Positions 8,601 through 33,955 of a stretch of 64,000 nt of DNA are shown here, in pieces. The notes under the pieces are model-generated. The model was not told where the DNA came from. It did not search any database and saw only the letters and a program-made list of their open reading frames with translations. Positions within the stretch are counted from its first letter, which is position 1. Every line of letters begins with the position of its first letter. This DNA comes from Escherichia coli. GTDB taxonomy: Bacteria > Pseudomonadota > Gammaproteobacteria > Enterobacterales > Enterobacteriaceae. Location: assembly GCF_044324785.1 (NCBI RefSeq), contig NZ_CP172127.1. One strand, given 5' to 3'. Both the position numbers and the translations under genes were made by a program.

Positions 8601-10656
8601 GCAGCAGGCGCTGCCGGTAACGCTCAACGAACAGGGTGAAGGCTCGGTTACACTGCCGATTGGTGATTTTAACGGTGAATTGCGCGTCATGGCGCAAGCC
8701 TGGACGGCAGATGACTTCGGTAGCAACGAAAGCAAAGTGATAGTTGCCGCACCGGTGATTGCTGAACTGAACATGCCGCGCTTTATGGCGAGTGGCGATA
8801 CCTCGCGTCTGACGCTGGATATCACTAATCTTACCGATAAACCGCAAAAACTGAACGTTGCCCTGACCGCCAGTGGTTTGCTTGAACTGGTCAGCGATTC
8901 ACCCGCAGCCGTTGAATTAGCGCCAGGCGTACGTACTACGCTGTTTATCCCGGTGCGAGCATTGCAAGGTTATGGCGATGGAGAAATTCAGGCCACCATT
9001 AGCGGGTTAGCGTTACCGGGTGAAACCGTTGCCGATCAGCATAAGCAGTGGAAAATCGGCGTCCGTCCGGCGTTCCCGGCACAAACGGTTAATTACGGTA
9101 CGACGTTGCAGCCTGGTGAGACATGGGCGATTCCGGCGGATGGATTGCAAAACTTCTCGCCTGTTACGCTGGAAGGGCAATTGTTGTTGAGCGGCAAACC
9201 ACCGCTGAACATCGCACGTTATATCAAAGAGTTAAAAGCGTATCCGTACGGCTGTCTTGAGCAAACCGCCAGCGGCCTGTTCCCGTCACTTTATACCAAC
9301 GCAGCCCAACTGCAGGCGTTGGGCATCAAAGGCGACAGTGATGAGAAACGCCGTGCATCGGTCGATATCGGCATTTCCCGTTTGCTGCAAATGCAACGTG
9401 ATAACGGCGGCTTTGCGCTGTGGGATAAAAACGGTGACGAAGAGTACTGGCTGACGGCTTACGTGATGGATTTCCTGGTCCGCGCAGGTGAGCAGGGTTA
9501 CAGCGTGCCGACGGACGCCATTAACCGGGGAAATGAGCGTCTGCTGCGCTATTTACAAGATCCGGGCATGATGTCGATCCCGTACGCGGATAATCTCAAA
9601 GCCAGTAAATTCGCCGTACAGTCTTACGCTGCGCTGGTGCTGGCCCGTCAGCAAAAAGCTCCACTGGGTGCGCTGCGTGAAATCTGGGAGCATCGTGCAG
9701 ATGCCGCTTCTGGTTTACCGCTGCTGCAACTTGGCGTTGCGCTGAAAACCATGGGTGATGCGACGCGTGGTGAAGAAGCAATTGCGTTGGCGCTGAAAAC
9801 GCCGCGTAATAGTGATGAGCGGATATGGCTGGGTGATTACGGTAGTCCACTGCGCGACAACGCGTTGATGCTCTCCTTGCTGGAAGAAAATAAACTGCTA
9901 CCCGATGAGCAGAACACTTTGCTGAACACGCTTTCGCAGCAGGCATTTGGTGAACGCTGGCTATCGACCCAGGAAAGCAACGCGTTGTTCCTGGCTGCCC
10001 GTACGATTCAGGATTTACCGGGTAAATGGCAGGCGCAAACCTCTTTCTCAGCTGAGCCGCTGACAGGCGAGAAAACGCTAAACAGCAATCTGAATAGCGA
10101 TCAACTTGCCACCTTGCAGGTGACCAACAGTGGCGATCAGCCGTTATGGCTGCGTGTGGATGCCAGCGGTTATCCGCAATCCGCACCTTTACCGGCGAAC
10201 AATGTGCTGCAAATCGAGCGTCATATTCTTGGTACTGATGGTAAGAGCAAATCGCTGGACTCGTTACGTAGCGGCGATCTGGTGCTGGTCTGGTTGCAGG
10301 TAAAAGCCAGTAACAGCGTGCCGGATGCGTTAGTCGTGGATCTGCTGCCTGCGGGTCTGGAACTGGAAAACCAGAATCTGGCGAACGGTAGCGCCAGCCT
10401 GGAGCAAAGTGGTGGCGAAGTGCAGAACTTACTGAACCAGATGCAGCAGGCGAGTATTAAGCACATTGAGTTCCGTGACGATCGCTTTGTGGCGGCGGTT
10501 GCCGTTGATGAATACCAACCGGTAACGCTGGTGTATCTGGCGCGGGCGGTGACGCCGGGAACGTATCAGGTGCCGCAGCCTATGGTGGAATCGATGTATG
10601 TTCCCCAATGGCGGGCGACCGGCGCGGCTGAAGATTTGCTGATTGTCAGACCGTAA
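5695..10656 (+). CDS. yfhM: Bacterial alpha-2-macroglobulin lipoprotein
   Basis: 1653 aa; lipobox LALAGC; thioester motif GCLEQ (nt ~9251-9265); followed by pbpC as in the known pairing. Confidence 0.95.
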   Translation: MKKLRVAACMLMLALAGCDNNDNAPTAVKKDAPSEVTKAASSENVSSAKLSAPERQKLAQQSAGKALTLLDLSEVQLDGAATLVLTFSIPLDPDQDFSRVIHVVDKKSGKVDGAWELSDNLKELRLRHLEPKRDLIVTIGKEVKALNNATFSKDYEKTITTRDIQPSVGFASRGSLLPGKVIEGLPVMALNVNNVDVNFFRVKPESLPAFISQWEYRNSLANWQSDKLLQMADLVYTGRFDLNPARNTREKLLLPLGDIKPLQQAGVYLAVMNQAGRYDYSNPATLFTLSDIGVSAHRYHNRLDIFTQSLENGAAQQGIEVSLLNEKGQTLTQATSDAQGHVQLENDKNAALLLARKDGQTTLLDLKLPALDLAEFNIAGAPGYSKQFFMFGPRDLYRPGETVILNGLLRDADGKALPNQPIKLDVIKPDGQVLRSVVSQPENGLYHFTWPLDSNAATGMWHIRANTGDNQYRMWDFHVEDFMPERMALNLTGEKTPLTPKDEVKFSVVGYYLYGAPANGNTLQGQLFLRPLREAVSALPGFEFGDIAAENLSRTLDEVQLTLDDKGRGEVSTESQWKETHSPLQVIFLGSLLESGGRPVTRRAEQAIWPADALPGIRPQFASKSVYDYRTDSTVKQPIVDEGSNAAFDIVYSDAQGVKKAVSGLQVRLIRERRDYYWNWSEDEGWQSQFDQKDLIENEQTLDLQADETGKVSFPVEWGAYRLEVKAPNEAVSSVRFWAGYSWQDNSDGSGAVRPDRVTLKLDKASYRPGDTIKLHIAAPTAGKGYAMVESNEGPLWWQEIDVPAQGLDLTIPVDKTWNRHDLYLSTLVVRPGDKSRSATPKRAVGVLHLPLGDENRRLDLALETPTQMRPNQPLTVKIKASNKNGEMPKQVNVLVSAVDSGVLNITDYVTPDPWQAFFGQKRYGADIYDIYGQVIEGQGRLAALRFGGDGDELKRGGKPPVNHVNIVAQQALPVTLNEQGEGSVTLPIGDFNGELRVMAQAWTADDFGSNESKVIVAAPVIAELNMPRFMASGDTSRLTLDITNLTDKPQKLNVALTASGLLELVSDSPAAVELAPGVRTTLFIPVRALQGYGDGEIQATISGLALPGETVADQHKQWKIGVRPAFPAQTVNYGTTLQPGETWAIPADGLQNFSPVTLEGQLLLSGKPPLNIARYIKELKAYPYGCLEQTASGLFPSLYTNAAQLQALGIKGDSDEKRRASVDIGISRLLQMQRDNGGFALWDKNGDEEYWLTAYVMDFLVRAGEQGYSVPTDAINRGNERLLRYLQDPGMMSIPYADNLKASKFAVQSYAALVLARQQKAPLGALREIWEHRADAASGLPLLQLGVALKTMGDATRGEEAIALALKTPRNSDERIWLGDYGSPLRDNALMLSLLEENKLLPDEQNTLLNTLSQQAFGERWLSTQESNALFLAARTIQDLPGKWQAQTSFSAEPLTGEKTLNSNLNSDQLATLQVTNSGDQPLWLRVDASGYPQSAPLPANNVLQIERHILGTDGKSKSLDSLRSGDLVLVWLQVKASNSVPDALVVDLLPAGLELENQNLANGSASLEQSGGEVQNLLNQMQQASIKHIEFRDDRFVAAVAVDEYQPVTLVYLARAVTPGTYQVPQPMVESMYVPQWRATGAAEDLLIVRP

Positions 10657-12969
10657 ATGCCTCGCCAGTTAACAAAACGCGGCTGCTGGATAATGCTGGC
10701 AGCTGCGCCCTTTCTCCTTTTTCTTGCAGCGTGGGGAGCTGATAAACTCTGGCCTCTACCGCTGCATGAAGTCAATCCCGCACGCGTGGTTGTGGCTCAG
10801 GATGGGACGCCGCTCTGGCGCTTTGCCGATGCGGACGGCATCTGGCGTTATCCGGTAACAATCGAAGATGTTTCTCCACGTTACCTTGAAGCGCTGATCA
10901 ATTATGAAGATCGCTGGTTCTGGAAGCATCCGGGGGTGAATCCATTCTCGGTGGCGCGCGCAGCATGGCAAGATCTCACTTCGGGAAGAGTTATTTCCGG
11001 TGGCAGCACGCTCACTATGCAGGTTGCTCGTCTGCTTGATCCTCACCCCAAAACATTTGGCGGCAAAATTCGCCAGCTCTGGCGCGCGTTGCAACTGGAG
11101 TGGCATCTGTCTAAGCGTGAAATTCTGACCTTGTATCTTGACCGCGCCCCGTTTGGCGGTACGTTACAGGGGATCGGTGCGGCAAGCTGGGCTTATCTCG
11201 GGAAGTCGCCTGCAAATTTGAGCTATTCCGAGGCGGCAATGCTGGCGGTTTTGCCGCAAGCGCCCAGCCGACTACGCCCGGATCGCTGGCCGGAACGTGC
11301 CGAAGCCGCGCGTAATAAAGTGCTCGAACGGATGGCTGCGCAAGGTGTGTGGTCCCGTGAGCAGGTAAAAGAATCAAGGGAAGAACCCATCTGGCTGGCA
11401 CCCCGACAAATGCCGCAACTGGCACCGCTGTTTTCGCGCATGATGCTCGGTAAAAGCAAAAGCGACAAAATCGTTACTACGCTGGATGCCGGTCTTCAAC
11501 GACGTCTGGAAGAACTGGCGCAAAACTGGAAAGGACGATTACCACCGCGCAGCTCACTGGCGATGATCGTGGTTGATCATACCGATATGCGTGTTCGCGG
11601 CTGGGTGGGTTCGGTTGATCTCAACGATGATTCACGCTTTGGTCATGTTGATATGGTCAATGCGATCCGATCGCCAGGATCGGTGCTCAAACCGTTTGTT
11701 TATGGTCTGGCGCTGGATGAAGGCTTGATCCACCCGGCATCACTGCTGCAAGACGTTCCCCGGCGTACCGGTGATTACCGACCTGGCAACTTTGACAGCG
11801 GTTTTCATGGCCCGATCAGCATGAGCGAGGCGCTGGTGCGCTCGCTGAATTTACCTGCTGTGCAGGTGCTGGAAGCCTATGGGCCGAAACGGTTTGCTGC
11901 AAAGTTACGCAATGTTGGATTGCCGTTATATTTGCCCAACGGTGCTGCACCGAATCTTTCGCTCATTCTCGGCGGCGCTGGTGCAAAACTGGGGGATATG
12001 GCGGCGGCCTATACCGCGTTTGCTCGCCACGGCAAGGCAGGTAAATTGCGCTTACAGCCTGACGATCCGCTGCTTGAACGGCCTTTAATGTCGTCGGGGG
12101 CGGCGTGGATCATTCGCCGGATTATGGCTGATGAAGCGCAACCCTTGCCGGATGGTGCCTTGCCGCGCGTTGCCCCACTGGCATGGAAAACGGGCACCAG
12201 CTATGGCTATCGTGATGCCTGGGCGATTGGGGTTAACGCTCGCTATGTTATTGGGATCTGGACTGGCAGACCGGACGGCACGCCCGTTGTTGGTCAGTTT
12301 GGCTTTGCCAGTGCCGTACCATTGTTGAATCAGGTCAATAATATCTTACTGTCGCGCAGTGCGAATCTGCCGGAAGACCCGCGCCCGAACTCAGTCACTC
12401 GTGGCGTTATCTGCTGGCCAGGCGGACAGTCTTTGCCGGAAGGTGACGGTAACTGTCGCCGCCGCCTGGCAACCTGGCTGCTGGACGGGAGTCAGCCGCC
12501 AACTCTATTACTGCCGGAGCAGGAAGGCATTAATGGCATTCGTTTCCCCATCTGGCTGGATGAAAACGGTAAACGTGTTGCCGCTGATTGCCCTCAGGCG
12601 CGACAAGAAATGATAAATGTCTGGCCGCTACCGCTGGAACCCTGGTTGCCCGCATCAGAACGCCGCGCTGTGCGCTTACCACCGGCCTCGACAATTTGCC
12701 CGCCATACGGTCACGATGCACAACTCCCACTGCAGCTGACAGGTGTTCGCGATGGCGCGATTATTAAACGTTTACCGGGCGCAGCGGAAGCGACTTTGCC
12801 GTTGCAATCAAGTGGAGGGGCAGGTGAACGCTGGTGGTTTCTGAATGGCGAACCGTTAACTGAACGCGGGCGCAACGTGACCCTGCATTTGATGGATAAA
12901 GGCGATTATCAATTGCTGGTGATGGATGAGGTGGGGCAAATCGCGACAGTGAAATTTGTCATGCAATAG
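10657..12969 (+). CDS. pbpC: Penicillin-binding protein 1C
   Basis: 770 aa, MPRQLTKRGCWIMLAAAPFLLFLAAWGADKLW; glycosyltransferase motif EDRWFWKHPGVN. ATG directly follows the yfhM TAA (taaatg). Confidence 0.95.
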   Translation: MPRQLTKRGCWIMLAAAPFLLFLAAWGADKLWPLPLHEVNPARVVVAQDGTPLWRFADADGIWRYPVTIEDVSPRYLEALINYEDRWFWKHPGVNPFSVARAAWQDLTSGRVISGGSTLTMQVARLLDPHPKTFGGKIRQLWRALQLEWHLSKREILTLYLDRAPFGGTLQGIGAASWAYLGKSPANLSYSEAAMLAVLPQAPSRLRPDRWPERAEAARNKVLERMAAQGVWSREQVKESREEPIWLAPRQMPQLAPLFSRMMLGKSKSDKIVTTLDAGLQRRLEELAQNWKGRLPPRSSLAMIVVDHTDMRVRGWVGSVDLNDDSRFGHVDMVNAIRSPGSVLKPFVYGLALDEGLIHPASLLQDVPRRTGDYRPGNFDSGFHGPISMSEALVRSLNLPAVQVLEAYGPKRFAAKLRNVGLPLYLPNGAAPNLSLILGGAGAKLGDMAAAYTAFARHGKAGKLRLQPDDPLLERPLMSSGAAWIIRRIMADEAQPLPDGALPRVAPLAWKTGTSYGYRDAWAIGVNARYVIGIWTGRPDGTPVVGQFGFASAVPLLNQVNNILLSRSANLPEDPRPNSVTRGVICWPGGQSLPEGDGNCRRRLATWLLDGSQPPTLLLPEQEGINGIRFPIWLDENGKRVAADCPQARQEMINVWPLPLEPWLPASERRAVRLPPASTICPPYGHDAQLPLQLTGVRDGAIIKRLPGAAEATLPLQSSGGAGERWWFLNGEPLTERGRNVTLHLMDKGDYQLLVMDEVGQIATVKFVMQ

Positions 12970-20625: not shown

Positions 20626-22098
20626 ATGGTACCTGTGGTCGCGCTTGTCGGGCGCCCTAACGTAGGAAAATCCACGTTATTTAACCGTCTAACTCGCACC
20701 CGAGATGCGCTGGTTGCGGATTTCCCGGGTCTGACTCGTGACCGTAAGTACGGTCGTGCAGAAATTGAAGGCCGTGAGTTTATCTGCATTGATACCGGCG
20801 GGATTGATGGTACAGAAGACGGTGTAGAAACCCGTATGGCGGAACAGTCGCTGCTGGCGATTGAAGAAGCGGACGTCGTACTGTTTATGGTGGATGCGCG
20901 CGCGGGCCTGATGCCGGCGGATGAAGCGATTGCCAAACATCTGCGCTCCCGTGAAAAACCGACCTTCCTGGTGGCAAACAAAACTGACGGTCTGGATCCC
21001 GATCAGGCAGTGGTTGATTTCTACTCGCTTGGTTTAGGGGAAATCTACCCGATCGCCGCGTCTCACGGTCGTGGCGTATTAAGTCTGCTGGAGCATGTGC
21101 TGCTGCCGTGGATGGAAGATCTCGCACCGCAAGAGGAAGTCGACGAAGACGCTGAATACTGGGCGCAATTTGAAGCAGAAGAAAACGGCGAAGAAGAAGA
21201 GGAAGATGACTTCGACCCGCAAAGTCTGCCAATCAAACTGGCGATTGTGGGTCGTCCGAACGTAGGTAAGTCTACACTCACGAACCGTATTCTTGGTGAA
21301 GAGCGCGTTGTTGTTTACGACATGCCTGGCACGACGCGTGACAGCATCTACATTCCAATGGAACGCGACGGACGTGAGTATGTACTCATTGACACCGCTG
21401 GCGTACGTAAACGCGGCAAAATCACCGATGCTGTAGAGAAGTTCTCGGTAATCAAAACGTTGCAGGCCATTGAAGATGCCAACGTGGTGATGTTGGTGAT
21501 TGATGCGCGCGAAGGTATTTCCGATCAGGATCTCTCCCTGCTGGGCTTTATTCTCAATAGTGGGCGCTCACTTGTCATTGTGGTGAATAAGTGGGATGGC
21601 CTGAGCCAGGAAGTGAAAGAGCAGGTGAAAGAAACGCTGGACTTCCGTCTGGGCTTTATCGATTTTGCTCGTGTGCACTTTATCTCTGCCTTGCACGGCA
21701 GTGGTGTTGGTAATCTGTTTGAATCAGTACGTGAAGCGTATGACAGCTCCACCCGTCGTGTGGGGACCTCTATGCTGACGCGCATCATGACGATGGCTGT
21801 TGAAGATCACCAGCCGCCGCTGGTACGTGGTCGTCGTGTGAAGCTGAAATATGCCCACGCTGGTGGTTATAACCCGCCGATTGTGGTGATTCACGGTAAC
21901 CAGGTGAAAGACCTGCCGGATTCCTACAAGCGTTACTTGATGAACTACTTCCGCAAATCGCTGGACGTAATGGGATCGCCGATTCGTATTCAGTTCAAAG
22001 AAGGGGAAAACCCGTATGCGAACAAGCGTAACACCCTGACGCCAACCCAGATGCGTAAACGTAAGCGCCTGATGAAGCATATCAAGAAAAGTAAGTAA
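20626..22098 (+). CDS. der: Ribosome-associated GTPase Der (EngA)
   Basis: Start at ATG 20626 ([20 protein letters not shown]); two GxxxxGKS G-domains; basic C-terminal tail. Confidence 0.95.
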
Positions 22099-22109
22099 TC
22101 ACTTATCTG

Positions 22110-22139
22110 GTTTCCCTTTCCACACGGAGAGGGAAACCG
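22110..22139 (+). terminator. Stem-loop after der
   Basis: ggtttccct-N12-agggaaacc inverted repeat just after the der stop. Confidence 0.5.
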
Positions 22140-22160
22140 AATAACACGCGAGGAGTATTT

Positions 22161-22376
22161 ATGGCACTCAACTGTCCAACCTGCAAAATCCCTCTCGAAC
22201 GCAATGGCGAGACTGCCCACTGTGCAACTTGCGACAAAGACTTTACCGTCCAGGCACTTTGCCCTGAGTGTCATCAGCCGTTACAAGTGTTAAAAGCTTG
22301 TGGTGCTGTGGATTATTTCTGCCAACATGGGCACGGTTTAATATCTAAAAAACGCGTTGAATTTGTTATTGCTTAA
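22161..22376 (+). CDS. yfgJ: YfgJ zinc-ribbon protein
   Basis: 71 aa with CPTC...CATC and CPEC...CQHGH pairs; position after der. Confidence 0.85.
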   Translation: MALNCPTCKIPLERNGETAHCATCDKDFTVQALCPECHQPLQVLKACGAVDYFCQHGHGLISKKRVEFVIA

Positions 22377-22585
22377 TATCATGTGAATATATTGTTTTAT
22401 CATTTATATTTAATATGTGAATGGTAAAACAATCTGTTATTAGTGGAATAACTAATGTAATTGAGTGAAATCACTAATTTAAATAATTAAGAATATATTT
22501 ATTCTTTATGACATGCCTTTCTGAATAATCAGGGATACAATATTAAAGCTTATTTTTGACTGTATCATTGTCACAGGGAAAGTGC

Positions 22586-24763
22586 ATGCTGCGATGGAAA
22601 CGCTGTATTATTCTAACATTTATCTCTGGTGCTGCTTTCGCGGCACCAGAGATAAATGTTAAGCAAAACGAATCGTTACCTGATTTAGGTAGCCAGGCAG
22701 CACAGCAGGATGAACAAACCAACAAGGGTAAATCGCTGAAAGAGCGCGGAGCCGATTACGTCATCAACTCCGCCACGCAAGGGTTTGAAAACTTGACCCC
22801 TGAGGCGCTGGAATCTCAGGCCAAAAGCTATCTGCAAAGTCAAATCACCTCAACCGCACAATCTTATATTGAAGACACACTCTCTCCCTACGGTAAGGTC
22901 CGTTCGAACCTCTCCATTGGCCAGGGCGGCGATCTGGATGGCAGTTCCATCGATTATTTTGTTCCCTGGTACGATAATCAAACCACTGTTTATTTCAGTC
23001 AATTTTCTGCGCAACGAAAAGAAGATCGTACAATCGGGAATATTGGTCTTGGAGTAAGACATAATTTTGATGAATGGTTATTGGGTGGAAATATATTTTA
23101 TGATTATGATTTTACCCGAGGACATCGCCGTTTAGGTTTAGGCGGCGAAGCGTGGACTGATTATTTAAAATTCTCTGGCAACTATTATCATCCGCTTTCT
23201 GACTGGAAAGACTCTGAAGATTTCGACTTTTATGAAGAACGCCCTGCGCGCGGCTGGGATATTCGTGCCGAAGCCTGGTTACCTTCTTATCCGCAACTGG
23301 GGGGCAAAGTTGTCTTCGAGCAATATTACGGCGATGAAGTCGCCCTTTTTGGTACGGATAATTTGGAGAAAGATCCCTACGCGGTAACGCTTGGACTGAA
23401 TTATCAACCGGTGCCATTACTGACCGTTGGGACGGATTATAAAGCAGGGACCGGAGATAACAGCGATGTCAGCATTAATGCCACTCTTAATTATCAGTTC
23501 GGCGTTCCGCTAAAAGATCAATTGGATAGCGATAAAGTGAAAGCGGCTCACTCGTTGATGGGCAGTCGTCATGATTTTGTTGAGCGTAATAACTTTATTG
23601 TTCTGGAATACAAAGAAAAAGATCCGCTTGATGTCACCCTGTGGTTAAAAGCGGATGCCACCAACGAGCACCCTGAGTGCGTCATTAAGGACACTCCCGA
23701 AGCGGCCGTCGGGCTGGAAAAATGTAAATGGACCATTAACGCGCTTATCAACCACCACTACAAAATTGTCGCTGCGTCATGGCAGGCGAAAAACAATGCT
23801 GCCCGCACGCTGGTTATGCCGGTTATCAAAGAGAATACCCTGACAGAGGGTAACAATAACCACTGGAACCTGGTGCTGCCCGCCTGGCAGTACAGCTCTG
23901 ACAAAGCCGAACAAGAAAAACTCAATACCTGGCGAGTACGTCTGGCACTGGAAGATGAAAAGGGCAACCGACAGAACTCTGGCATGGTGGAAATCACCGT
24001 TCAGCAGGACCGTAAAATTGAGTTGATTGTTAATAACATCGCGAACGTGCCGGAAGAGAACAACCACAGCCATGAAGCCAGCGCCCAGGCAGATGGCGTT
24101 GATGGTGTGGTGATGGATCTCGATGTAACCGACAGCTTTGGCGATAACACCGACCGCAACGGCGATGCGCTGCCGGAAGATAACCTCACGCCGCAGCTTT
24201 ACGACGCGCAGGACAAACGAGTGACGTTAACCAACAAGCCTTGCTCGACCGACAACCCCTGCGTTTTTATCGCTAAACAAGATAAAGAAAAGGGCACTGT
24301 CACCCTCTCCAGTACCTTACCCGGCACCTATCGCTGGAAAGCAAAAGCCGCGCCCTACGACGACAGTAACTATGTGGATGTCACTTTCCTCGGGACAGAA
24401 ATTGGTGGGCTAAATGCATTTATCTATCGTGTGGGGGCAGCTAAACCCAGCAACCTGATAGGTAAAGATAAAGAACCGCTGCCGCTCAACAACACTTATC
24501 GATTTGTTTTGTGGCGTGACAGCAATAAAGACGGTGTCTTCCAGCAGGTCGAAAAACTGACTGACGAAGAGATGGCGCAGTACGACTACAAGTGGGAATT
24601 TACCGGCAAGAGCATCAATGGTGAAGTGGGTGCACAGGCGAACACATCCAATGAGGACATTGTGATTCCGGCCACTAACCGCGAAGCGGCGCAAACCTAT
24701 GGCGCACAAGCGGGAGATGGCTTGCAGGGATACGGTTTACGCGTGCTGTATACCAAAAAATAA
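22586..24763 (+). CDS. sinH: Inverse autotransporter (intimin/invasin family) adhesin, SinH-like
   Basis: Signal peptide MLRWKRCIILTFISGAAFA. Intimin-type beta-barrel region (DYFVPWYDNQTTVYFSQFSAQRKEDRTIGNIGLGVR...ERPARGWDIRAEAWLP). Short passenger. Confidence 0.8.
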   Translation: MLRWKRCIILTFISGAAFAAPEINVKQNESLPDLGSQAAQQDEQTNKGKSLKERGADYVINSATQGFENLTPEALESQAKSYLQSQITSTAQSYIEDTLSPYGKVRSNLSIGQGGDLDGSSIDYFVPWYDNQTTVYFSQFSAQRKEDRTIGNIGLGVRHNFDEWLLGGNIFYDYDFTRGHRRLGLGGEAWTDYLKFSGNYYHPLSDWKDSEDFDFYEERPARGWDIRAEAWLPSYPQLGGKVVFEQYYGDEVALFGTDNLEKDPYAVTLGLNYQPVPLLTVGTDYKAGTGDNSDVSINATLNYQFGVPLKDQLDSDKVKAAHSLMGSRHDFVERNNFIVLEYKEKDPLDVTLWLKADATNEHPECVIKDTPEAAVGLEKCKWTINALINHHYKIVAASWQAKNNAARTLVMPVIKENTLTEGNNNHWNLVLPAWQYSSDKAEQEKLNTWRVRLALEDEKGNRQNSGMVEITVQQDRKIELIVNNIANVPEENNHSHEASAQADGVDGVVMDLDVTDSFGDNTDRNGDALPEDNLTPQLYDAQDKRVTLTNKPCSTDNPCVFIAKQDKEKGTVTLSSTLPGTYRWKAKAAPYDDSNYVDVTFLGTEIGGLNAFIYRVGAAKPSNLIGKDKEPLPLNNTYRFVLWRDSNKDGVFQQVEKLTDEEMAQYDYKWEFTGKSINGEVGAQANTSNEDIVIPATNREAAQTYGAQAGDGLQGYGLRVLYTKK

Positions 24764-24817
24764 GATTGGCGTAAGGCCAGTCGGCCAGTCGCTGAAGGTT
24801 CATTAAGGAGAGCATCA

Positions 24818-25795
24818 ATGAAGCAGGATAAAAGACGCGGTCTGACCCGGATCGCATTGGCGCTGGCATTGGCAGGTTATTGTGTGGCACCTGTGGCGCT
24901 GGCGGAAGACAGCGCATGGATAGATAGCGGAGAAACCAATATTTTCCAGGGGACCATTCCGTGGCTCTATTCGGAAGGGGGAAACGCTACGACAGATGCC
25001 GACCATGTAACGTTGACTTCTGATCTAAAAGGCGCTCGCCCGACAGGCAGTGAAACGGACAAGCGTCTTTACTCGGGTGATAAATTAACCGTAAGTTGGG
25101 AAATTGGTGATACCGAAGGCGACGTGGATCTTGGGGTATTGGGCGATAACGCAAAGACTATCGATACTATCCGCTGGATGAGCTACAAGGACGCTCAGGG
25201 TGGCGATCCGAAAGCGCTGGCAACGAAGGTGACCAGTTACACTCTTACCGATGACGACCGTGGTCGTTATATCGGTATTGAAATTACGCCAACCACGCAG
25301 ACCGGTACGCCAAACGTCGGGAATGCGCTGCATCTTTATGACGTTTCCACTGCCAGCGGCGGAGGAAGCGACAGTGACAACGTTGCGCCAGGGCCGGTAG
25401 TTAACCAGAACCTGAAAGTCGCCATCTTTGTTGATGGTACCAGTATCAACCTTATCAACGGCAGCACGCCAATCGAACTTGGCAAAACCTACGTGGCCAA
25501 ACTGTACTCGGATGAGAACAAAAACGGGAAGTTTGATGCGGGTACCGATGCTGACGTTACCGCCAATTATGACTTCCGTTGGGTACTTTCTGGCAGCAGC
25601 CAACAGCTCGGCACCTCGGCTGGTATCGTTAACTCAAGCTTCGATAATAACAATCTGGTCATCCCGAAAACCAACGACGAAGCCAGAACCAACCTTAACG
25701 GCCCTGCGCGCGATGGTAAAGAGGCTCTTACCATCCCGACAAACGGCGACGGGGTACAGGGGTACAAACTTCACATTATTTACAAACACAAATAA
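24818..25795 (+). CDS. sinI: Secreted SinI-like protein; C-terminus paralogous to the SinH passenger tip
   Basis: 325 aa, signal peptide ...VAPVALA/EDSAW. The C-terminal ~100 aa align by eye with the SinH C-terminus (TY..L..D.NK.G.F...YD..W..G.S...VIP.TN.EA...GDG.QGY.L..Y..K). Confidence 0.65.
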   Translation: MKQDKRRGLTRIALALALAGYCVAPVALAEDSAWIDSGETNIFQGTIPWLYSEGGNATTDADHVTLTSDLKGARPTGSETDKRLYSGDKLTVSWEIGDTEGDVDLGVLGDNAKTIDTIRWMSYKDAQGGDPKALATKVTSYTLTDDDRGRYIGIEITPTTQTGTPNVGNALHLYDVSTASGGGSDSDNVAPGPVVNQNLKVAIFVDGTSINLINGSTPIELGKTYVAKLYSDENKNGKFDAGTDADVTANYDFRWVLSGSSQQLGTSAGIVNSSFDNNNLVIPKTNDEARTNLNGPARDGKEALTIPTNGDGVQGYKLHIIYKHK

Positions 25796-25806
25796 CGCGT
25801 ACTCAG

Positions 25807-25833
25807 CAGCATTCCCGCAAGGGAATGCTGTTT
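25807..25833 (+). terminator. Intrinsic terminator after sinI
   Basis: 10-bp stem cagcattccc-gcaa-gggaatgctg followed by tttcc. Confidence 0.55.
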
Positions 25834-25836
25834 CCG

Positions 25837-25871
25837 CATATTTTGCTTAATCCCGAATTAAGCAAAATATG
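25837..25871. promoter_or_regulatory. Perfect 15-bp inverted repeat upstream of ratA
   Basis: catattttgcttaat-cccga-attaagcaaaatatg, 45 nt upstream of the ratA ATG. Confidence 0.4.
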
Positions 25872-25915
25872 TTGATGCGACAAGCGTCCGTTTAACAACC
25901 GGTGGAGTTTCTGTC

Positions 25916-28900
25916 ATGTCCCTGACCCTGAATAAAATCCTTGTGTTATGCGCATTGCTGATAAGCGCAATGCTGCCTGGGTGGTCATGGGCAGAATCTG
26001 CATGGCAAGACTCTTCAGATACCGTAGGTGAATTTAACGGTACCGTGCCCACCGCCGACAGTGCCAGCATACCCGTCTACCAGGGCAGTGTTTTTCTGGA
26101 TCCTGCAAAGACGCATGAGGTAGCGTTTACCGCTAAACCGAGTGAATTTAGCGCGGATGTTAGCGTCTCTAAATTGCTCGTCACCAATCCGCAAGACAGA
26201 GAAGGCGATATCATTGCCACCCCACGTTGGGAAAACCAAACGCCACCGACAGTATCTTTAGTTTGGGCGGATGCAGCGACGCCGGACACCTTACTGGACC
26301 CACAGCCAGTCGCAGATCGCTCGTTTTGCGCTCAGGGACTTGCCGGGCGTTCGTTGATCGCCTGGGCGCAGCCAGACTCCCAGCAGACCATGCCTCTGTT
26401 ATATCTACTTACCTCGACGGGCTATCCCTATGAAAGTGTTCTGACGCTCGCCGATCAGAAAGTGACGCTGAAGATTGCGCCCGCGCAGGGTGACCTTATT
26501 TCCGTCAGCGCCGCGGGCTATGACGAATCCTCCGGTGCGGCGAAAACGACGGTTGGCGGCAGTATCACGTTAACGGTCACTACCAAAGATTGCGTCGGTA
26601 ATGTTGTGGGGAATATTCCTTTTGTTATCAAACGCAAAGATGCTGAAAACCGCCAGGGTGTGGTGAACAATACTGCGCCTGTAAAACTGGGCACGACCGA
26701 ATTAACCACCACCGCGACGGAATATCGTGGTACTACCGATGCGAATGGTGTTGCCACGGTTACGGTCACCCAGGCCAACGGCCCTGGTGTAAAAACGCCG
26801 TTGGTCGCGAGCCTCGCGGGTATTGCTCAGACCAGTGAAACGGCAGTGATCTTTACCGTCCTCACCAGCCCGGATGTCCCGCAGGCTACAATGTGGGGTC
26901 ATATGCCCGATACGCTGAAGGCCCGTGATTACACTTTTAGTCGACCAAAACTGGCGACGGAAGTCGATAATGAAGACGGTACGGTTAACGATCACAATGA
27001 AACCTGGTCCACCTTTACCTGGAGCGGCGCGGATAAACATTGCGACATTTTGCCCGGAATGCGTCAGTTCGGTGCGCTGGCGACGGTGGTGCCAACGTCA
27101 GTGCAGGATGTGGCTGGTTGGCCGATTCAGGGTAACTACTACTGGTCATCACTGGCGGGAATGACCGGACAACACCACGCGACAGATGTTTCCAACCGTA
27201 GCGAAGCGCAAAAACCGGACGATACGACGTTTATTGTGAGCTGTGTCGATAAAGAAGCGCCCGATGTTGAACCGAAGCTGGTACTGACGCCGGGCAGTTA
27301 TGATTCGACGATAAAAGCGATGAAAGTAAAGGTGGGGGAAGAGGCTTCTTTACGCCTGACGATTACCGATAGCAAGAACAACGATCAGCCGCTGGCGTAC
27401 TACTACTTTTCGCTGCATCTGGATGACGGCATTAACCGTAAGAATCAAACTGACGCCGCGTGGGAGACGCACCCGGTACAAATTGATGGCGGCAGTAACG
27501 TTCGCAAAGTTGACGCCCATACCTATGAAGGGATCACTGATGCTAACGGAGAGGCCTCTCTGACGCTGACCCAGCCAGGCGGCGTGGGGGTGAAAACTCA
27601 CATCACCGCGAAAATGCGCAGCGATTTTACCGCCTCGGATGAGAAAGACGTTATTTTTACGGTGATCACCAGCCCTGATTCCGACAAAGCGCGGATGTGG
27701 GGACATATGTTAGGCATTATTGAAGCGAACAATATCTTTAAACGCCCACGGCTGGCGGATGAAACCGACAACGAACTGGGAGCAGTGCGGGAAAATAACG
27801 AAGACTGGGCGCTGTTTGATCAGAATAGCAGTATGCAGGCTGAGTGTGGTTTAGGTCATATTCCGAGCCAAAGCTCATTGCACAGTTTGTTTGCCGCACA
27901 TCCAGGCAATGTCATCGGCACCGAATATGGCTGGCCAACGTTGCAAAAAGCGTATCTTAGTGCGGTGGAAGAGACGTCGCACGCGTCGGTGAACCTGGCC
28001 ACGGGCAATATCGACACCTATTCCGGCTTTAAGCAAAACTACCTTTCCTGTTCGGGCAATGAGATGGTTGCCCAGATTGCCGCGACCACCGATCGCGATG
28101 TTTCCACAGGCAGCAGAGCGCAGGCGAAAGTGGGTGAAACGATTACCATGACGGTACGCACCTTTAATGCCTTGAATAATGCGCCCGTGCCGTATACCGC
28201 GTTCACCATCACGAAAGATATGGGGAAAAATCGTCAGGGGCAGACCACGGGTTTCGATGATCCAACCCGCGGCGCAATCGAGATGAATGGCTCGCTCTAC
28301 GGAACATCGCAACCGTCTTTAGTCTATGCAGGTACTACGGATGCGCAGGGTTTTGCTACTGTGGAAATTAAGCAACCGCAAGGTGTGGGCTTAGCGACGC
28401 CGCTGAATATTGCGCCTGTAAACTCCTATATTCCCAATACTGTTAATTACAATGTGATTTTCACTACGCTCACCAGTCCGGATGCGGTTGGCGCGCAGAT
28501 GTGGGGGCATATGGATGAGACGATTACCGTCGATGCATTAACCTTTGCCCGACCCCGGCTGGCTGCGGAAGTGTCCAGCCCGGACGGCACATTAACGGAA
28601 AATAACGAAGTGTGGTCGCGCGTTAGCCAGGCCAACACTTCCAGCACCAGTAAAGGTGGCTGTGGTGCCAATATGCTCCCACGCCGTTCCCAGCTTAACG
28701 CGCTCTATGATGCTAACAGCGGTAACGCCGTTCAAACGGTACACGGTTGGCCAACGCAGCGTCAGCCCTACTGGAGCAGTTCGCCCGCAGATCAGGTGCC
28801 GCATTACTACACCATAGCCCTCAACGATGGCGCGCGGACCGTTGGCGGTAGCACGGCGGTTTATGTCAGTTGCCTGACGACGGCTAACAATCCTGCCAGC

Positions 28901-31900
28901 AGCATTACGCTGGAAGTGGTGGACCCGGCGCAGTGGAACGCTGCAGCAAATGCGGCGAAGCTGAAAAAAGGCGAAACGCTACAGGTGAAGGTGACGGTAA
29001 AAGATGCTCAGGGCAATCCATTGGGTGATATGCCTTTTACCCTGAAGCGTGGCGATGGTTATACCCGATCAAACGAAAAACACATTGCCGGTAGCGGTGA
29101 TGCGCTGGTTGCGCCGGTTGTGATCAATAGTGGCCTGGCGGATGAAACTTCGCTCAATGATACCGCCGCAGCATACAGCGCGATGACCGGCAGCGATGGC
29201 ACTAAAATTCTCACTATTACCCGCCCGGATACCCATGGCACGAAAACGTCGCTGACCGCCGCGCTCTATTCAGACACAACGAAAAAAGCGACTCTCGATA
29301 CCATTTTTACCGTTGTCACCAGCCCGGACAGCAATAAAGCGAAAATGTGGGGGCATATGCCGGAAACGGTGACGGCTGCGGATGGAACGGTCTTTAAACG
29401 CCCATTATTGTTGAAAGAGTTATCCAGTACGTCGGGTCGAACAGCGATTGCAGAAGAGAATGAGGACTGGGCGCAATTTACCCAAACTCAGGCGACAAGC
29501 ACATCCTCTAATGGTTGCGGTAGTGAATATGTTCCCTCTCAGGCCGGGCTGGGGTCATTGTATGAAGCCAACCGCGGCAATGCGATGAAAACGGTTCAGG
29601 GCTGGCCCGTAGTCTCAAGTTACCTTTCCAGCACGACAGGCAGCAGTAGTCTGGAACAGCGTGACTTCAAGGCCGTCAATCTCAGTTCAGGCACCAGTTC
29701 GATAATTCCATCGGCCACAAAAGAACTGCTTACCTGCCAGACGACGCCGATCGTTAAGGCAAGCCAAATCGTTCTTGAGGCTGCGGACCCTACAAAATTT
29801 GACAGTACGAATAATGTTGTCAAAGCGAAAAAAGGGGAAGAAGTCGTGGTTCGCGTGACCACTAAAGATTCGCAGGGTAACCCGGTGGGAAATACCGCGT
29901 TTACGCTTAAACGTAACCTTAGCGTCAATCGGGCAAATGCGTCTACAACGGTGACAGCAGGCGCGCTCATCGTGACGGATGCCTGGGGTAACACGCAGAG
30001 TAATTTTTCCTCAACAACAGCACTGATTTATGGCGTTACCGGCGCAGATGGTACGACAACACTTGCACTGAAACAGGACAATACCACGGGTTTAAAAACC
30101 GAACTGACCGCCATGCTGGATACAGATAATAACGTAAAATCAATGCTTCCGGTGGTCTTTACGGTGATAACCAGCCCCGATACCCCTAAAGCAAAATTCT
30201 GGGGGCATATGGCCGAAACGATGACCGGTGCAGGCGGGCTTATTTATAAAAGACCGTTATTGCAAGATGAGCTTTCCGTTACAACCAGTCGAAGCTCTTT
30301 TCAGGAAGATGGAGAGAGCTGGTCACTGTTCTCGCCGGACCAGTCGAACAACACATCTGTAAATGGTTGCGGTGCAGGATATGTCCCGGTTGAAAGTGAG
30401 CTGGAGTCACTGTATGCCGATGAAGGTTACGTGCCAATACATGACGTTACGGGATGGCCTGTATCACGCGCCTATATCTCCAGTACGGTTGTTGCCTATT
30501 ACACTCAAACATTTAATTTTAAAGCGGTTTCGTTGAAGACTGGTTATAAATCGGAGGTCATGTCAAGCAGTATAGGACTGCTAAGTTGTCGGGCTACCCC
30601 AGTGGCGGTGACCAGCCACATTATTGTTGAAGCGAACGATGCGACACAATTTGTCAAAGTTGACGAAACCCTCAGCGCACTAAAACAGAAAAAAGGTGAC
30701 GACGCGGTGATTCGCGTGGTGACCAAAGATGCGCAGGGAAATGTCGTACCAAATGTTCCGTTTATTCTCAAACGTGAAGGATCGACAAATCGCCAGAATG
30801 TACAGTTGTCGAACAGAACTATCACTGTAATCAACGCTGCGGGAACGTCGGCAAGAGTGGATACTCCATCAATCTCCCTTTATGCGGTGACAGGTGCAGA
30901 CGGGACAGCCACGTTTACGGTAAAGCAGGATGATTCTATAGGCCTGGTAACCAATGTGTACGCTCAGGCCTATCAGTCGAGCCTGGAATCCAACAAATTA
31001 CCCGTGATGTTTACCGTGATAACCAGCCCGGATACCCCCCTGGCAAGTTACTGGGGGCATATGGCGGAAACGTTCACTACGCGTTCCGGGATTGCCTTCA
31101 AACGCCCCTTACTCTCTGCTGAAAGATCGTCGGGCCAGTCGTTTATAGAAGACAATGAAGAGTGGGCCGTGTTGAAATCGGCAACAAAGGGGGATGCAGA
31201 TAAAAGCGGGTGCGATGTACATTATCAACCGCTGTTAAGCGAACTCCAGGCATTGTACGACGAACACCCAAGTCGTGCGATAAAGACCGATCTGGGTATT
31301 CCAGTGAATAGCTACTGGTGGGCTTACGACATGGTGGCATATGCGGGTAAGTGGTACGATCAATATATTTCTCTGTTAAATGGATCAAGTGGAAGAGCGT
31401 CTTCAACCACCTCGGCATTAATGCTGTGCCTGGTAAACCCTCATCCAGAGGCGGCTTCTATTGAGATGACCTCAACGGCAGAGGATGCAACGAAAACGGC
31501 GAGCAATGATGGCAGGCCCAGCGCAACGGCGAAGAAGGGAGAGGTTATCCCGATGATGGTTACGGTGCGGGATAGCGCAGGCAATCCACTGCCAGGTGCC
31601 AGCTTTAACCTTAAACGTGGGACTGCGCTGAATCGCGCTAAAGCTGCGTACGATGCCTCTGCAGATGATCTTACCATCGTGCCTTTGGAGCCTACCGGGG
31701 TAACGTCAATCTTGTATGAGGATGGGACGCAGGCTCTTCTGAAGACAGGAAGCGATGGTAAAGCTACTTTTGAGGTCAGCCAAAACGGCAGTTATGGGTT
31801 CGCAATCCCGCTCACTGCAACATTGATGCGCGACACCTCAAAAAGCGCCACGCTGGATGTCATTTTCACGGTGATAACCAGCCCGGATTCGCCAAAAGCG

Positions 31901-33955
31901 AAATACTGGGGCCATATGCCGGAAACGTTTACCAGCTCGGCAGGCGTGACCTTCAAGCGCCCATTACTGGCAGCGGAAGCGACTACGGGGAGCTCGGTAA
32001 ACGGTAATAATGAGACATGGTCATATATATATAGTACTCAAAAAGCGACGGCAGATTGTTCGCTGGAATATCAACCGCGCCTCAGCGAGTTGCAGGGGCT
32101 TTATAACGATCACCCTAACGGGGCGATAACGACAGATCTGGGGGTGCCGACAACAGCCGGAAACTGGTGGACTTATGAGCTTACTCTTAGTGGCACGTCC
32201 TGGTATTATCAGGTCATTAACCTGAAAACAGGACAACCTTCGTCTTCTTTCACTGCGTCTGCTCAGATGCTTTGTCTGACGCAGCCTCACGCTTTATCAT
32301 CAAGCGTGACCCTCACGTCAGCCGCATTTGATGAGACGAAAACCGCCAGTAACGGCGGCACACCTTCGGCATCGGCGAAAAAGGGCGAGACAATCCCGTT
32401 AGTCGTGACAGTAAAAGACCAAAATGGCAACCTGGTGAGTGGTGAGGGCGTGACGCTTCAGCGGGCGCAGGCGAAAAGTCGTTCAGGAATTAGGCCCTCA
32501 TCGTCGGCAGATGATCTTATTGTAGATGTCGTCACACCGACAGCAGCCCGTATTTCCTTTGCTCAGGATACGGCAAAATGGCTTGGTTTTACCGGCAGTG
32601 ATGGCACAGTAACATTCAATGTAACGCAAAACGCCACCACCGGCCTGGCAACGCCGTTTACGGTCTCGCTTGCACAAGATCCGCAGCTCACGTCAAACCT
32701 GGACCTGATATTTACCGTGGTCACCAGCCCTGACTCCCTGGATGCCAACTACTGGGGCCATATGCCAGAAACGGTGACAGCGGCAAATGGAACCGTCTTT
32801 GAACGATCGAAATTGTGGAAGGAGCTGCCATCGACCTCCGGGGTAAATAAAACCAATAACAATAATGAGGACTGGCCCTATTTTTCGTCAACCACTAAAG
32901 CAAATTCCAGCCTCAGCCCTTGTGAGGAAGCCCGGCAACCGTTGCTCAGCGATATGAAGTCACTGTATCAACGTTATCCCAATAACACCCTTACGACGGA
33001 AACTGGCTGGTCAGTTTATTATTACTGGTGGGCGCAGGATAAGACTACAGATGGTAAAAATCAGTCACTCAATATGAAAGATGGCACAACGACATTGAAT
33101 GGTAATGCCGCTTATCAGGCGTGTCTGGTGTCTGCACGCGCGACGGTTTCCAGCGTCACACTGACCTCAACAGCGTTTGATGCTGACAGCCAGGCGGCGA
33201 AAGTGAAAAAAGGCGAAGCCATGCCCGTTACCGTGACGGTGAAAGACAGCGCCGGGAATACGGTGCCGAATGTGGAATTTACTTTGAAACGCGGTGAGGC
33301 ATCGCCGCGTAACGCTGGGGCAACGTTGTATGGTGATGTGGTGGCGATGGACGATCTCATCGTTCAGCCGTTATCTGGTTCGGCTGTTACGCTGAGTGAA
33401 AGCGGTAATACCATTAGTGGCATGACAGGCGCGGATGGGACGGCAAGTTTTACGCTCCGCCAGGATAATACCCCTGGTTATAAAACGCCACTGACGGTTA
33501 CTCTGGCTAATTACGCTTCCGCGACAGACACGCTGGACGCTATTTTTACGGTACCAACCAGCCCGAATGTTTCCTCGGCGCACTTTTGGGGACATATGGC
33601 AGACACTGCAGTGGTGAATGGTAAATCGCTACATCGACCGTTGTTAACGACAGAATTGCCGTCCGGGGCTAATCCCGTATCCTCACCGATTATTAACTAC
33701 GAAAACTGGGCTTCTGCACATATCATTGATGCCAGTAAATGGGATATTGCAAGACAGTGTGGCAGCATAGAAAATGCACCGACATACAATGAATTAGAGT
33801 TGTTGCACACTGTTTTTAATTCACTGGGATGGCCGTCTTCACCAAGTTTTCCTTATTTGTCCTCTCAACAGTGTGGGATGGACGAAGGCACTGGAGCACA
33901 GGATTGTAGTATCACGCTAATGAATAAACCGGGTCTGGTGACCTGCTTCCAGTAA
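25916..33955 (+). CDS. ratA: Giant repetitive surface protein, RatA-like (Ig-like plus lectin-like module repeats)
   Basis: 2679 aa; signal peptide ...[11 protein letters not shown]; nine repeats marked by FT(V/T)xTSP(D/N)...WGHM. Follows sinH-sinI as in CS54. Confidence 0.75.
26500..33600 (+). repeat. Nine in-frame ~800-855-bp tandem repeat units within ratA
   Basis: The accagcccggat (TSPD) landmark recurs near 26865, 27667, 28472, 29318, 30170, 31022, 31876, 32723 and 33556. Confidence 0.8.

Follow-up and report, generated by a model that had tools for sequence, protein, structure and literature searches.

An N-terminal Element Shared by SinI and RatA Marks Barrel-less Proteins Encoded Beside Inverse-Autotransporter Genes

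Introduction

The sinH-sinI-ratA locus of Escherichia coli raises the question of how two barrel-less, Sec-exported proteins, SinI and RatA, are related to SinH, the inverse autotransporter whose gene precedes theirs, and whether a short motif at their mature N-termini has a part in that relationship. SinH is a vaccine candidate as well as a colonisation factor in extraintestinal E. coli and Salmonella. We analysed the locus in a stretch of 64,000 nucleotides (nt) from NCBI RefSeq assembly GCF_044324785.1, contig NZ_CP172127.1 (hereafter the window, meaning the whole of this stretch). SinI and RatA turn out to share an N-terminal element, the tag, that recurs well beyond this locus and that could, as a tentative reading, be what the neighboring inverse autotransporter recognizes.

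The idea of a partnership has been raised before. Taking ZirT/ZirS/ZirU as the model, Heinz et al. (2016; PMC4943183) put forward SinH-type inverse autotransporters as translocators of SinI and Rat-like proteins, and Goh et al. (2019; PMC6714894) made the same proposal for the E. coli orthologue, IatB; the NCBI family name of SinI (“autotransporter-associated protein”) already implies as much. The question of whether ZirT-like inverse autotransporters serve other proteins has been called a “Gordian knot” in review (PMC4943183). On our assessment of this literature, the two-partner or split adhesin reading of the SinH operon is a known hypothesis and not a discovery. An earlier reading of this DNA, made from the letters alone (the original prediction), had seen in the locus a split intimin-type system. 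That description stands in that a barrel protein is followed by two barrel-less, Sec-exported, module-sharing proteins (in 19/19 loci), although as a hypothesis it had already been published. The novel part of the present work is the motif itself, redefined as a general signature of partner proteins, and not a new kind of system; in the searchable literature we came upon no account of the tag.

Conservation of the N-terminal Tag in SinI and Rat

The signal peptides of SinI and RatA were called by eye, from a positive n-region, a hydrophobic core and an A-x-A site, and in both proteins the tag follows the predicted cleavage site:

24818..24904, + strand: SinI signal peptide, amino acids (aa) 1–29, predicted cleavage ALA|ED (A-x-A rule on the sequence)
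24905..24967, + strand: SinI N-terminal partner tag, aa 30–50, EDSAWIDSGETNIFQGTIPWL (conservation in 29 SinI sequences, cross-family profile)
25916..25993, + strand: RatA signal peptide, aa 1–26, predicted cleavage SWA|ES (called by eye; not conserved among Rat orthologues)
25994..26089, + strand: RatA N-terminal partner tag, aa 27–45, with a Rat-specific continuation to IPVYQGS (aa 58)

The mature proteins begin at nt 24905 (SinI, EDSAWIDSGETNIFQGTIPW) and at nt 25994 (RatA), which is where the original prediction had placed their starts. It had also claimed that both starts carry a common motif spelled SAW-DS-T-GT-P. The similarity is real, being recovered by reciprocal profiles, but the letters “SAW-DS” belong to a single E. 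coli/Pseudocitrobacter clade. The part of the motif that is conserved reads W...(S/T)..T..[IF][QN]GT.P, the tag in most genera takes the form (N)LK[ST]G.WQ.....T..[IF][QN]GT[VIP]P, and its minimal core can be written as [ST]-x(1-3)-hydrophobic-x-G-x-x-P.

SinI homologues from Escherichia, Salmonella, Citrobacter, Kluyvera, Pseudocitrobacter, Superficieibacter and Leminorella were compared for the tag. In 29 SinI sequences W34, T40, G45, T46, P48 and W49 vary little or not at all, the typical reading being NLKSGQWQxVTxxTGTIQGTVPW, and the tag matches the core strands of the alignment in its degree of conservation. The Rat alignment (A2) has W30, Q31, N41, G42, T43, P45 and P53–S58 as invariant positions and typically reads LKSGTWQELNxSTDAINGTVP, followed by the Rat-specific IPVYQGS.

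Profiles of 22 columns, each built from the N-termini of one family only, were searched against 1935 six-frame open reading frames (ORFs) from the window and 26 loci. Outside SinI, the SinI-only profile matched nothing but the equivalent stretch of Rat N-termini, with E-values from 1.8e-6 to 0.02 (0.0046 for RatA of the window), and the reciprocal Rat-only profile retrieved SinI N-termini with E-values from 2e-6 to 0.03; unrelated ORFs appeared from E ~0.3–3. The SinI and Rat tags of one genome align without gaps over 22 residues with 7–14 identities in the 18 genomes from which both tags were extracted. Conservation in orthologues had been proposed as a check on the motif, and the motif is indeed present in SinI and Rat at SinH loci of approximately 10 genera. 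We regard the tag as very probably a real, functionally constrained element.

In the clade of the window (with L001–L004), SinI and Rat have both lost LK.G and switched I to F. Co-variation of the two tags was considered as a statistical argument on its own and was set aside: the permutation p of 0.0007 becomes 0.68 once the window clade is removed, so that the signal stems from one clade-level switch, which is a single event and not statistical evidence.

Two side observations concern the same region. A second motif common to SinI and RatA, D-x-EGD after a β-strand, lies about 50 residues past the tag (SinI nt 25079–25123, aa 88–102, TVSWEIGDTEGD; RatA nt 26183–26209, aa 90–98); it turns up again in partner proteins at distant loci and in giant-adhesin repeats, and it resembles an immunoglobulin-like (Ig-like) domain signature of the Ca-binding type. 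The back-translated G-T-V-P (GGN ACN GTN CC) is its own reverse complement, which means that the antisense strand also reads ...QGTVP... and gives rise to a spurious ORF match (L014:10060-10353, − strand).

Distribution of the Tag Across Inverse-Autotransporter Loci

The tag marks barrel-less proteins encoded beside inverse-autotransporter genes in general. Distant loci were reached by a profile search of 1.84 billion representatives together with contig look-ups, and the census of the tag covers the window and 30 loci, comprising 600 kb and 420 ORFs of at least 200 aa. In 60/420 ORFs the core lies within residues 16–110, and these 60 are all and only the barrel-less secreted proteins beside a gene with the inverse-autotransporter barrel domain PF11924; among the other 360 sampled ORFs none has the core in residues 16–110, and the inverse autotransporters themselves are without it. 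Every barrel-less protein of at least 200 aa with a signal peptide beside a PF11924 gene has the core near its mature N-terminus, and in the distant loci the tagged protein adjoins a PF11924 gene wherever the contig reaches far enough. A few short neighboring ORFs (e.g., of 127 aa and 154 aa in L030) lack the tag and may or may not be partners.

The core varies considerably in its letters, as in TGTIQGAAPVL, AGKLTGTVPVL, TGIIFGTPPVI, LGKITGTPPVI, TDPVHGRAPTV, SDTVKGRAPQ, TEPIQGRAPTL and SPPVKGREPV, and the proteins that bear it are of several kinds, namely SinI-like, Rat-like, ZirU-family, ZirU-repeat and invasin-repeat proteins as well as proteins that combine a Big_2 domain with an intimin-like C-terminus. 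Two tagged proteins, of 290 aa in L020 and 442 aa in L026, have no detectable SinI, Rat or ZirU homology. A tagged protein of 216 aa exceeds the ZirU family cutoff (112 vs. 100 bits), the alignment to the model beginning at the first mature residue, and another of 1081 aa consists of nine ZirU-like repeats. In Aeromonas veronii a tagged “ZirU family protein” adjoins a tagged 992-aa Big_1/Invasin_D3 protein. Taxonomically, the tag was found in Enterobacterales, in Aeromonas and in one locus with an MvaT DNA-binding-domain gene.

Some individual loci have features of their own. The inverse autotransporters at L030:1954-5436 (− strand) and L031:7112-9853 contain a LysM domain, and the passenger of the former consists of ZirU-like repeats (ZirU_fam, 4 stretches, 202 bits), so that passenger/partner paralogy of the SinH/SinI type recurs there with another type of domain. 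Leminorella grimontii (L014) has two Rat-like genes in succession after sinI (L014:11052-20078 and L014:20162-20959), an arrangement that recalls Salmonella ratA/ratB, and both of the encoded proteins begin with the tag (SGWQALDVSTSAINGTSP and DTWHEPHSSTGMINGTAP).

Architecture of SinH, SinI and RatA

The genes and the domains of their products, apart from the signal peptides and tags given above, are as follows:

22586..24763, + strand: sinH (iatB), intimin-like inverse autotransporter, 725 aa (NF033423 equivalog, 1486.9 bits vs. a cutoff of 999)
22772..23593, + strand: SinH β-barrel translocator, aa 63–336 (PF11924 IAT_beta, a 12-stranded barrel type, E 1.1e-108)
23594..24760, + strand: SinH passenger, aa 337–725 (downstream of the barrel)
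24476..24760, + strand: SinH C-terminal module, aa 631–725 (paralogue of the SinI C-terminus)
24818..25795, + strand: sinI, SinI family autotransporter-associated protein, 325 aa (NF040711, 335.3 bits vs. a cutoff of 165)
25004..25342, + strand: SinI Ig-like domain 1, aa ~63–175, with D.EGD (strands at 64–173 in the structure model)
25469..25792, + strand: SinI C-terminal module, aa 218–325, paralogue of the SinH tip (BLASTP; modelled with high local confidence, 84–95)
25916..33955, + strand: ratA-like gene, 2679 aa, no barrel (NF011844 equivalog, DUF823/DUF824 repeat adhesins, 5398.9 bits vs. a cutoff of 3870)
26555..33952, + strand: nine tandem BIg21 (PF05688) + InvE_AD (PF05689) units (Pfam, 9 + 9)

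What had been said earlier of the domain architecture holds up on all three counts: SinH has a barrel and a short passenger (PF11924 at aa 63–336, passenger of ~390 aa), the C-terminus of SinI is paralogous to the tip of that passenger, with the coordinates correct, and RatA is a concatenation of nine Ig-like and Cys-bearing modules (nine matches each to PF05688 and PF05689) without a barrel.

SinH residues 1–725 align to positions 1–730 of the NF033423 model, which is its full length, and the ATG at 22586 fits this model end to end, the ORF itself opening at a TTG at 22556. The barrel matches the solved structures of invasin (4e1t, E 6.6e-73) and intimin (4e1s, E 4.4e-65), and SinH is predicted from these matches to be a type Ve (inverse) autotransporter with an outer-membrane barrel and a passenger of ~390 aa. 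Pfam assigns no domain to the passenger (no Big_1, lectin or adhesion-domain match); residues 337–724 have been described as three Ig-like domains (PMC9937491).

The SinH module (631–725) and the SinI module (218–325) are 35% identical over 111 columns (BLASTP, E 6e-12), and the curated SinH and SinI models cross-match reciprocally, with NF040711 matching SinH 619–722. This similarity has already been published, Heinz et al. (2016) giving credit for it to Kingsley 2003 (PMC4943183). In L021, L022 and L026 the tip of the transporter bears only a weak likeness to the C-terminal module of its partner. Concerted evolution of tip and module was entertained as a further possibility and rejected, the tips clustering with tips and the partners with partners.

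SinI, for which 136 homologues were found, was modelled with AlphaFold2 (AF2) from an alignment of 29 sequences. The model has a mean predicted local distance difference test score (pLDDT) of 70.7 and contains two β-sandwiches, at aa ~63–175 and 199–325, in which the score rises up to 95; SinI is modelled, that is, as two Ig/fibronectin type III (FnIII)-like domains. Residues 1–62, which include the tag, have a pLDDT of <50, and the tag is not packed on domain 1. Pfam gives nothing significant in SinI. Domain 1 has weak matches to ZirU_fam (5e-7) and IG_AIR9; its type is that of ZirU and of giant-adhesin repeats, and profile positions 90–180 recur in many long proteins. A Foldseek comparison of the SinI model with the PDB gave no match below E 1e-3 and generic Ig/FnIII folds only, and when SinI, the SinI family and ZirU-family proteins were compared with the PDB by sequence and by profile, no solved relative came up.

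Other parts of SinI are conserved as well. The hydrophobic region of its signal peptide, LTRIALALALAGYCV (aa 9–23, nt 24842–24886), ranks third in conservation among the 15-aa windows of the SinI alignment (A1), and “LALAGY” is retained in distant SinI-like proteins (P0253, P0255, P0260, P0288–P0290 and P0294), whose neighboring Rat proteins have signal peptides that vary. A lipoprotein reading of the “AGYC” in SinI was considered and dropped, since the Tyr at −1 breaks the lipobox [LVI][ASTVI][GAS]C and the distant SinI-like “LAGY” proteins are without the Cys. The inter-domain linker GGGSDSDNVAPGPVV (aa 181–195, nt 25358–25402) also ranks with the best-conserved parts of SinI; with a pLDDT of <50 over aa 179–188, it is a second conserved and apparently unstructured element.

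The units of RatA repeat with a period of ~280 aa, every adhesion domain bearing a Cys pair ~70 aa apart, and a single unit matches the “putative invasin” fragment in PDB entry 5n40 (E 3.9e-24). No barrel family was found in the Pfam scan of RatA, and there is no domain that it detectably has in common with the SinH passenger; what RatA shares is only the tag, and this with SinI. For the N-terminus of RatA, the AF2 model built from 12 sequences is uninformative, with a mean pLDDT of 41.7.

The sinH-sinI-ratA Island

We are as good as certain that the locus is the E. coli sinH-sinI-ratA adhesin island known from earlier descriptions. The chromosome annotation of E. coli N3, which matches at 100%, has sinH, a “SinI family autotransporter-associated protein” and an “adhesion domain-containing protein”, and the island is flanked by a small zinc-ribbon gene and xseA. 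The sinH, sinI and ratA-like genes are three co-directional ORFs spanning 22586–33955, all of which exceed the curated NCBIfam cutoffs, with sinI starting 54 nt past the sinH stop. The order sinH-sinI-rat was found in 19/19 species-level loci (Escherichia, Pseudocitrobacter, Citrobacter, Kluyvera, Superficieibacter, Leminorella and other Enterobacteriaceae). The 12.5 kb around the locus are present at full length in 934 of the 5426 complete E. coli genomes (~17%), and the GC content is 0.444 in window 22001–24000 (the 5' half of sinH) compared with 0.52–0.55 in the flanks, a combination that is consistent with an island horizontally acquired or often lost.

All three starts (22586, 24818 and 25916) are 2 mod 3 and lie in one reading frame, with gaps of 54 and 120 nt, so that in-frame fusions would result if each stop were read through once; we take this for a probable coincidence. 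The scan for promoters and terminators gave no signal exceeding the shuffled expectation. Upstream of the island, at window 5695–12969, lie two large back-to-back ORFs of 1653 aa and 770 aa.

Discussion

The mechanism that we would propose starts from SinI and RatA being exported by Sec to the periplasm as barrel-less proteins, with the tag exposed directly after the predicted signal-peptidase site. The tag would then be recognized by the cognate inverse autotransporter, or docked on it, and this would lead either to export across the outer membrane or to attachment to the passenger. The outcome would be a composite adhesin in which SinI and RatA are parts added to SinH, the anchor or translocator. 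We give about an even chance to this account as a whole, in which a known island, a shared partner tag and a composite adhesin are combined, and it is the best overall explanation that we have. The original prediction had already suggested that the shared motif could be a common export or docking signal, and this idea came through each check applied to it: orthologues keep the motif, other partner families including that of ZirU have it, no other sampled ORF has its core in residues 16–110, and the SinI model leaves it outside the folded domains. That the tag is a recognition or docking element for its cognate inverse autotransporter is, judged from sequence, a possibility that falls somewhat short of probable, and that it works as a general address label in a two-partner pathway of type Ve, whereby the neighboring inverse autotransporter exports or docks whatever bears it, is a suggestion that we make more tentatively still. 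A speculative variant is a head-to-tail chain of SinH, SinI and RatA, suggested by SinI, which combines the tag with a copy of the SinH tip; against this variant, the tag of SinI is not docked on its own C-terminal module in the AF2 model.

Several considerations weigh against a role of the tag in recognition by the inverse autotransporter. The low pLDDT of the SinI tag may simply stem from the alignment of 29 sequences. By hhalign, SinI 31–107 and RatA 25–103 are similar over ~77 columns that include D.EGD (86.5% probability, E 4.5e-6), and with this extension the tag may be the start of a homologous N-terminal region of ~80 aa. The loci of the census were reached via SinI-like or ZirU-like proteins, which makes the sampling not independent of homology, and the comparison with the ZirU family uses other members of that family and not the Salmonella ZirS/ZirU sequences themselves. 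Another export route is also possible, given that a barrel-less invasin-like adhesin of Acinetobacter baumannii, InvL, is reportedly (from the title of PMC9245377) a substrate of type II secretion. Biofilm formation by IatB is independent of the downstream protein (Goh et al., 2019; PMC6714894). Finally, the own linker of an inverse autotransporter plugs the pore of its barrel (Heinz et al., 2016; PMC4943183), which leaves no clear translocation route for partners.

The alternative that survives best, though we consider it unlikely, is that the tag caps an ancestral Ig-like “D.EGD” domain at its N-terminus, or forms the first strand of that domain, and is kept for folding or stability without any role in targeting, in which case its link with inverse autotransporters reflects where this family of domains resides. 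In its favor, the SinI/Rat similarity extends in hhalign over ~77 columns, D.EGD included, and in most partners the tag is indeed followed by a SinI- or ZirU-like first domain (NF040711/NF040485), the ZirU family model even taking in the tag region as part of its profile. Set against this is the SinI model, in which the tag lies outside the domains and unpacked against domain 1 (pLDDT <50), and which likewise speaks against the possibility, raised with the original prediction, that the motif is merely the first strand of an ordinary domain. Moreover, the Ig-like repeats in giant adhesins and in P0274 follow one another without a tag between them, the tag occurring once and at the N-terminus; its distance from the cleavage site (0–50 aa) and to the first strand varies; and the tagged proteins of L020 (290 aa) and L026 (442 aa) have no detectable SinI/ZirU domain for it to cap.

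It is decidedly improbable, in our estimation, that the tag is read by machinery other than SinH, be it type II secretion, a periplasmic chaperone or periplasmic retention, with the proximity to sinH reflecting the co-regulation of adhesins. The reported type II secretion of InvL would fit such a route. So would biofilm formation by IatB without the downstream protein (PMC6714894) and the problem of the blocked pore in the inverse-autotransporter barrel (PMC4943183). The tag, however, follows inverse-autotransporter neighborhoods across genomes and is found in 0/360 other ORFs, and the secretion of ZirS/ZirU has been reported to depend on ZirT (PMC4943183, PMC2270342). As for chance, or a gene conversion in which sinI and ratA recently exchanged their 5' ends, we see practically no prospect for either and take both as refuted: only ~10/20 residues match in the window itself, and the joint change in the window clade (LK.G lost, I to F) could hint at exchange, but the cross-family profiles match reciprocally over ~10 genera and the two tag DNAs of the window differ at most synonymous sites, which places the likeness at the protein level.

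Comparison with known systems helps to situate the proposal that the tag addresses its bearers to the neighboring inverse autotransporter. The closest is ZirT/ZirS/ZirU of Salmonella enterica, where likewise an inverse-autotransporter gene is followed by genes for Sec-exported, barrel-less proteins with Ig-like domains that resemble its passenger. Similarly, SinI as a partner in the SinH operon shares domain homology with the passenger of its transporter (E 6e-12), and the tag core is present both in a protein above the ZirU cutoff and in the Aeromonas “ZirU family protein”, SinI itself matching ZirU weakly. ZirS and ZirU are both reported as secreted in a ZirT-dependent manner (PMC4943183), and ZirS, whose secretion depends on ZirT, has no N-terminal domain of the two-partner secretion (TPS) type (Gal-Mor et al., 2008; PMC2270342). 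The two systems differ in that transporter-dependent secretion has been reported for ZirT only, the SinH operon being known here from sequence, and in that the SinH partner RatA is a multi-repeat adhesin of 2679 aa and not a small Ig protein.

The layout proposed for the SinH operon resembles in its logic that of type Vb secretion (FhaC/FHA, TpsB/TpsA), with a separate outer-membrane transporter and a Sec-exported substrate whose mature N-terminus bears a conserved stretch that could serve as the recognition signal. The SinH barrel, however, is IAT_beta and not Omp85/POTRA, the tag has ~10–22 residues in place of a TPS domain of ~250 aa with NPNL/NPNGI, and Rat, SinI and ZirU are Ig-like and not β-helical. 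Pfam and NCBIfam scans of SinH, SinI and RatA gave no match to Omp85/POTRA or to the TPS domain, which places the operon outside type Vb. Single-chain intimins and invasins, including the invasin-like PF05689 proteins of Yersinia, have the same barrel as SinH, and the RatA unit matches the C-terminal part of 5n40, parts that occur fused elsewhere; in the SinH operon, by contrast, the adhesion modules are found on a separate polypeptide, RatA, and are repeated nine times. Donor-strand complementation in chaperone-usher systems suggests, purely as an idea, that a short conserved N-terminal segment could dock on an Ig-like domain, although the SinH operon is without chaperone or usher and there is no sign of a strand-deficient domain. 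InvL of A. baumannii, again by the title of its paper, is barrel-less like SinI and RatA; it is described as invasin-like and still reaches the cell surface.

If the tag is merely a domain cap, the locus stays as the databases already describe it. The tag nevertheless provides a sequence rule by which partner proteins may be spotted in genomes, and, being short, mutable and graftable and present on every sampled partner, it makes the question of how such partners are exported accessible to experiment.

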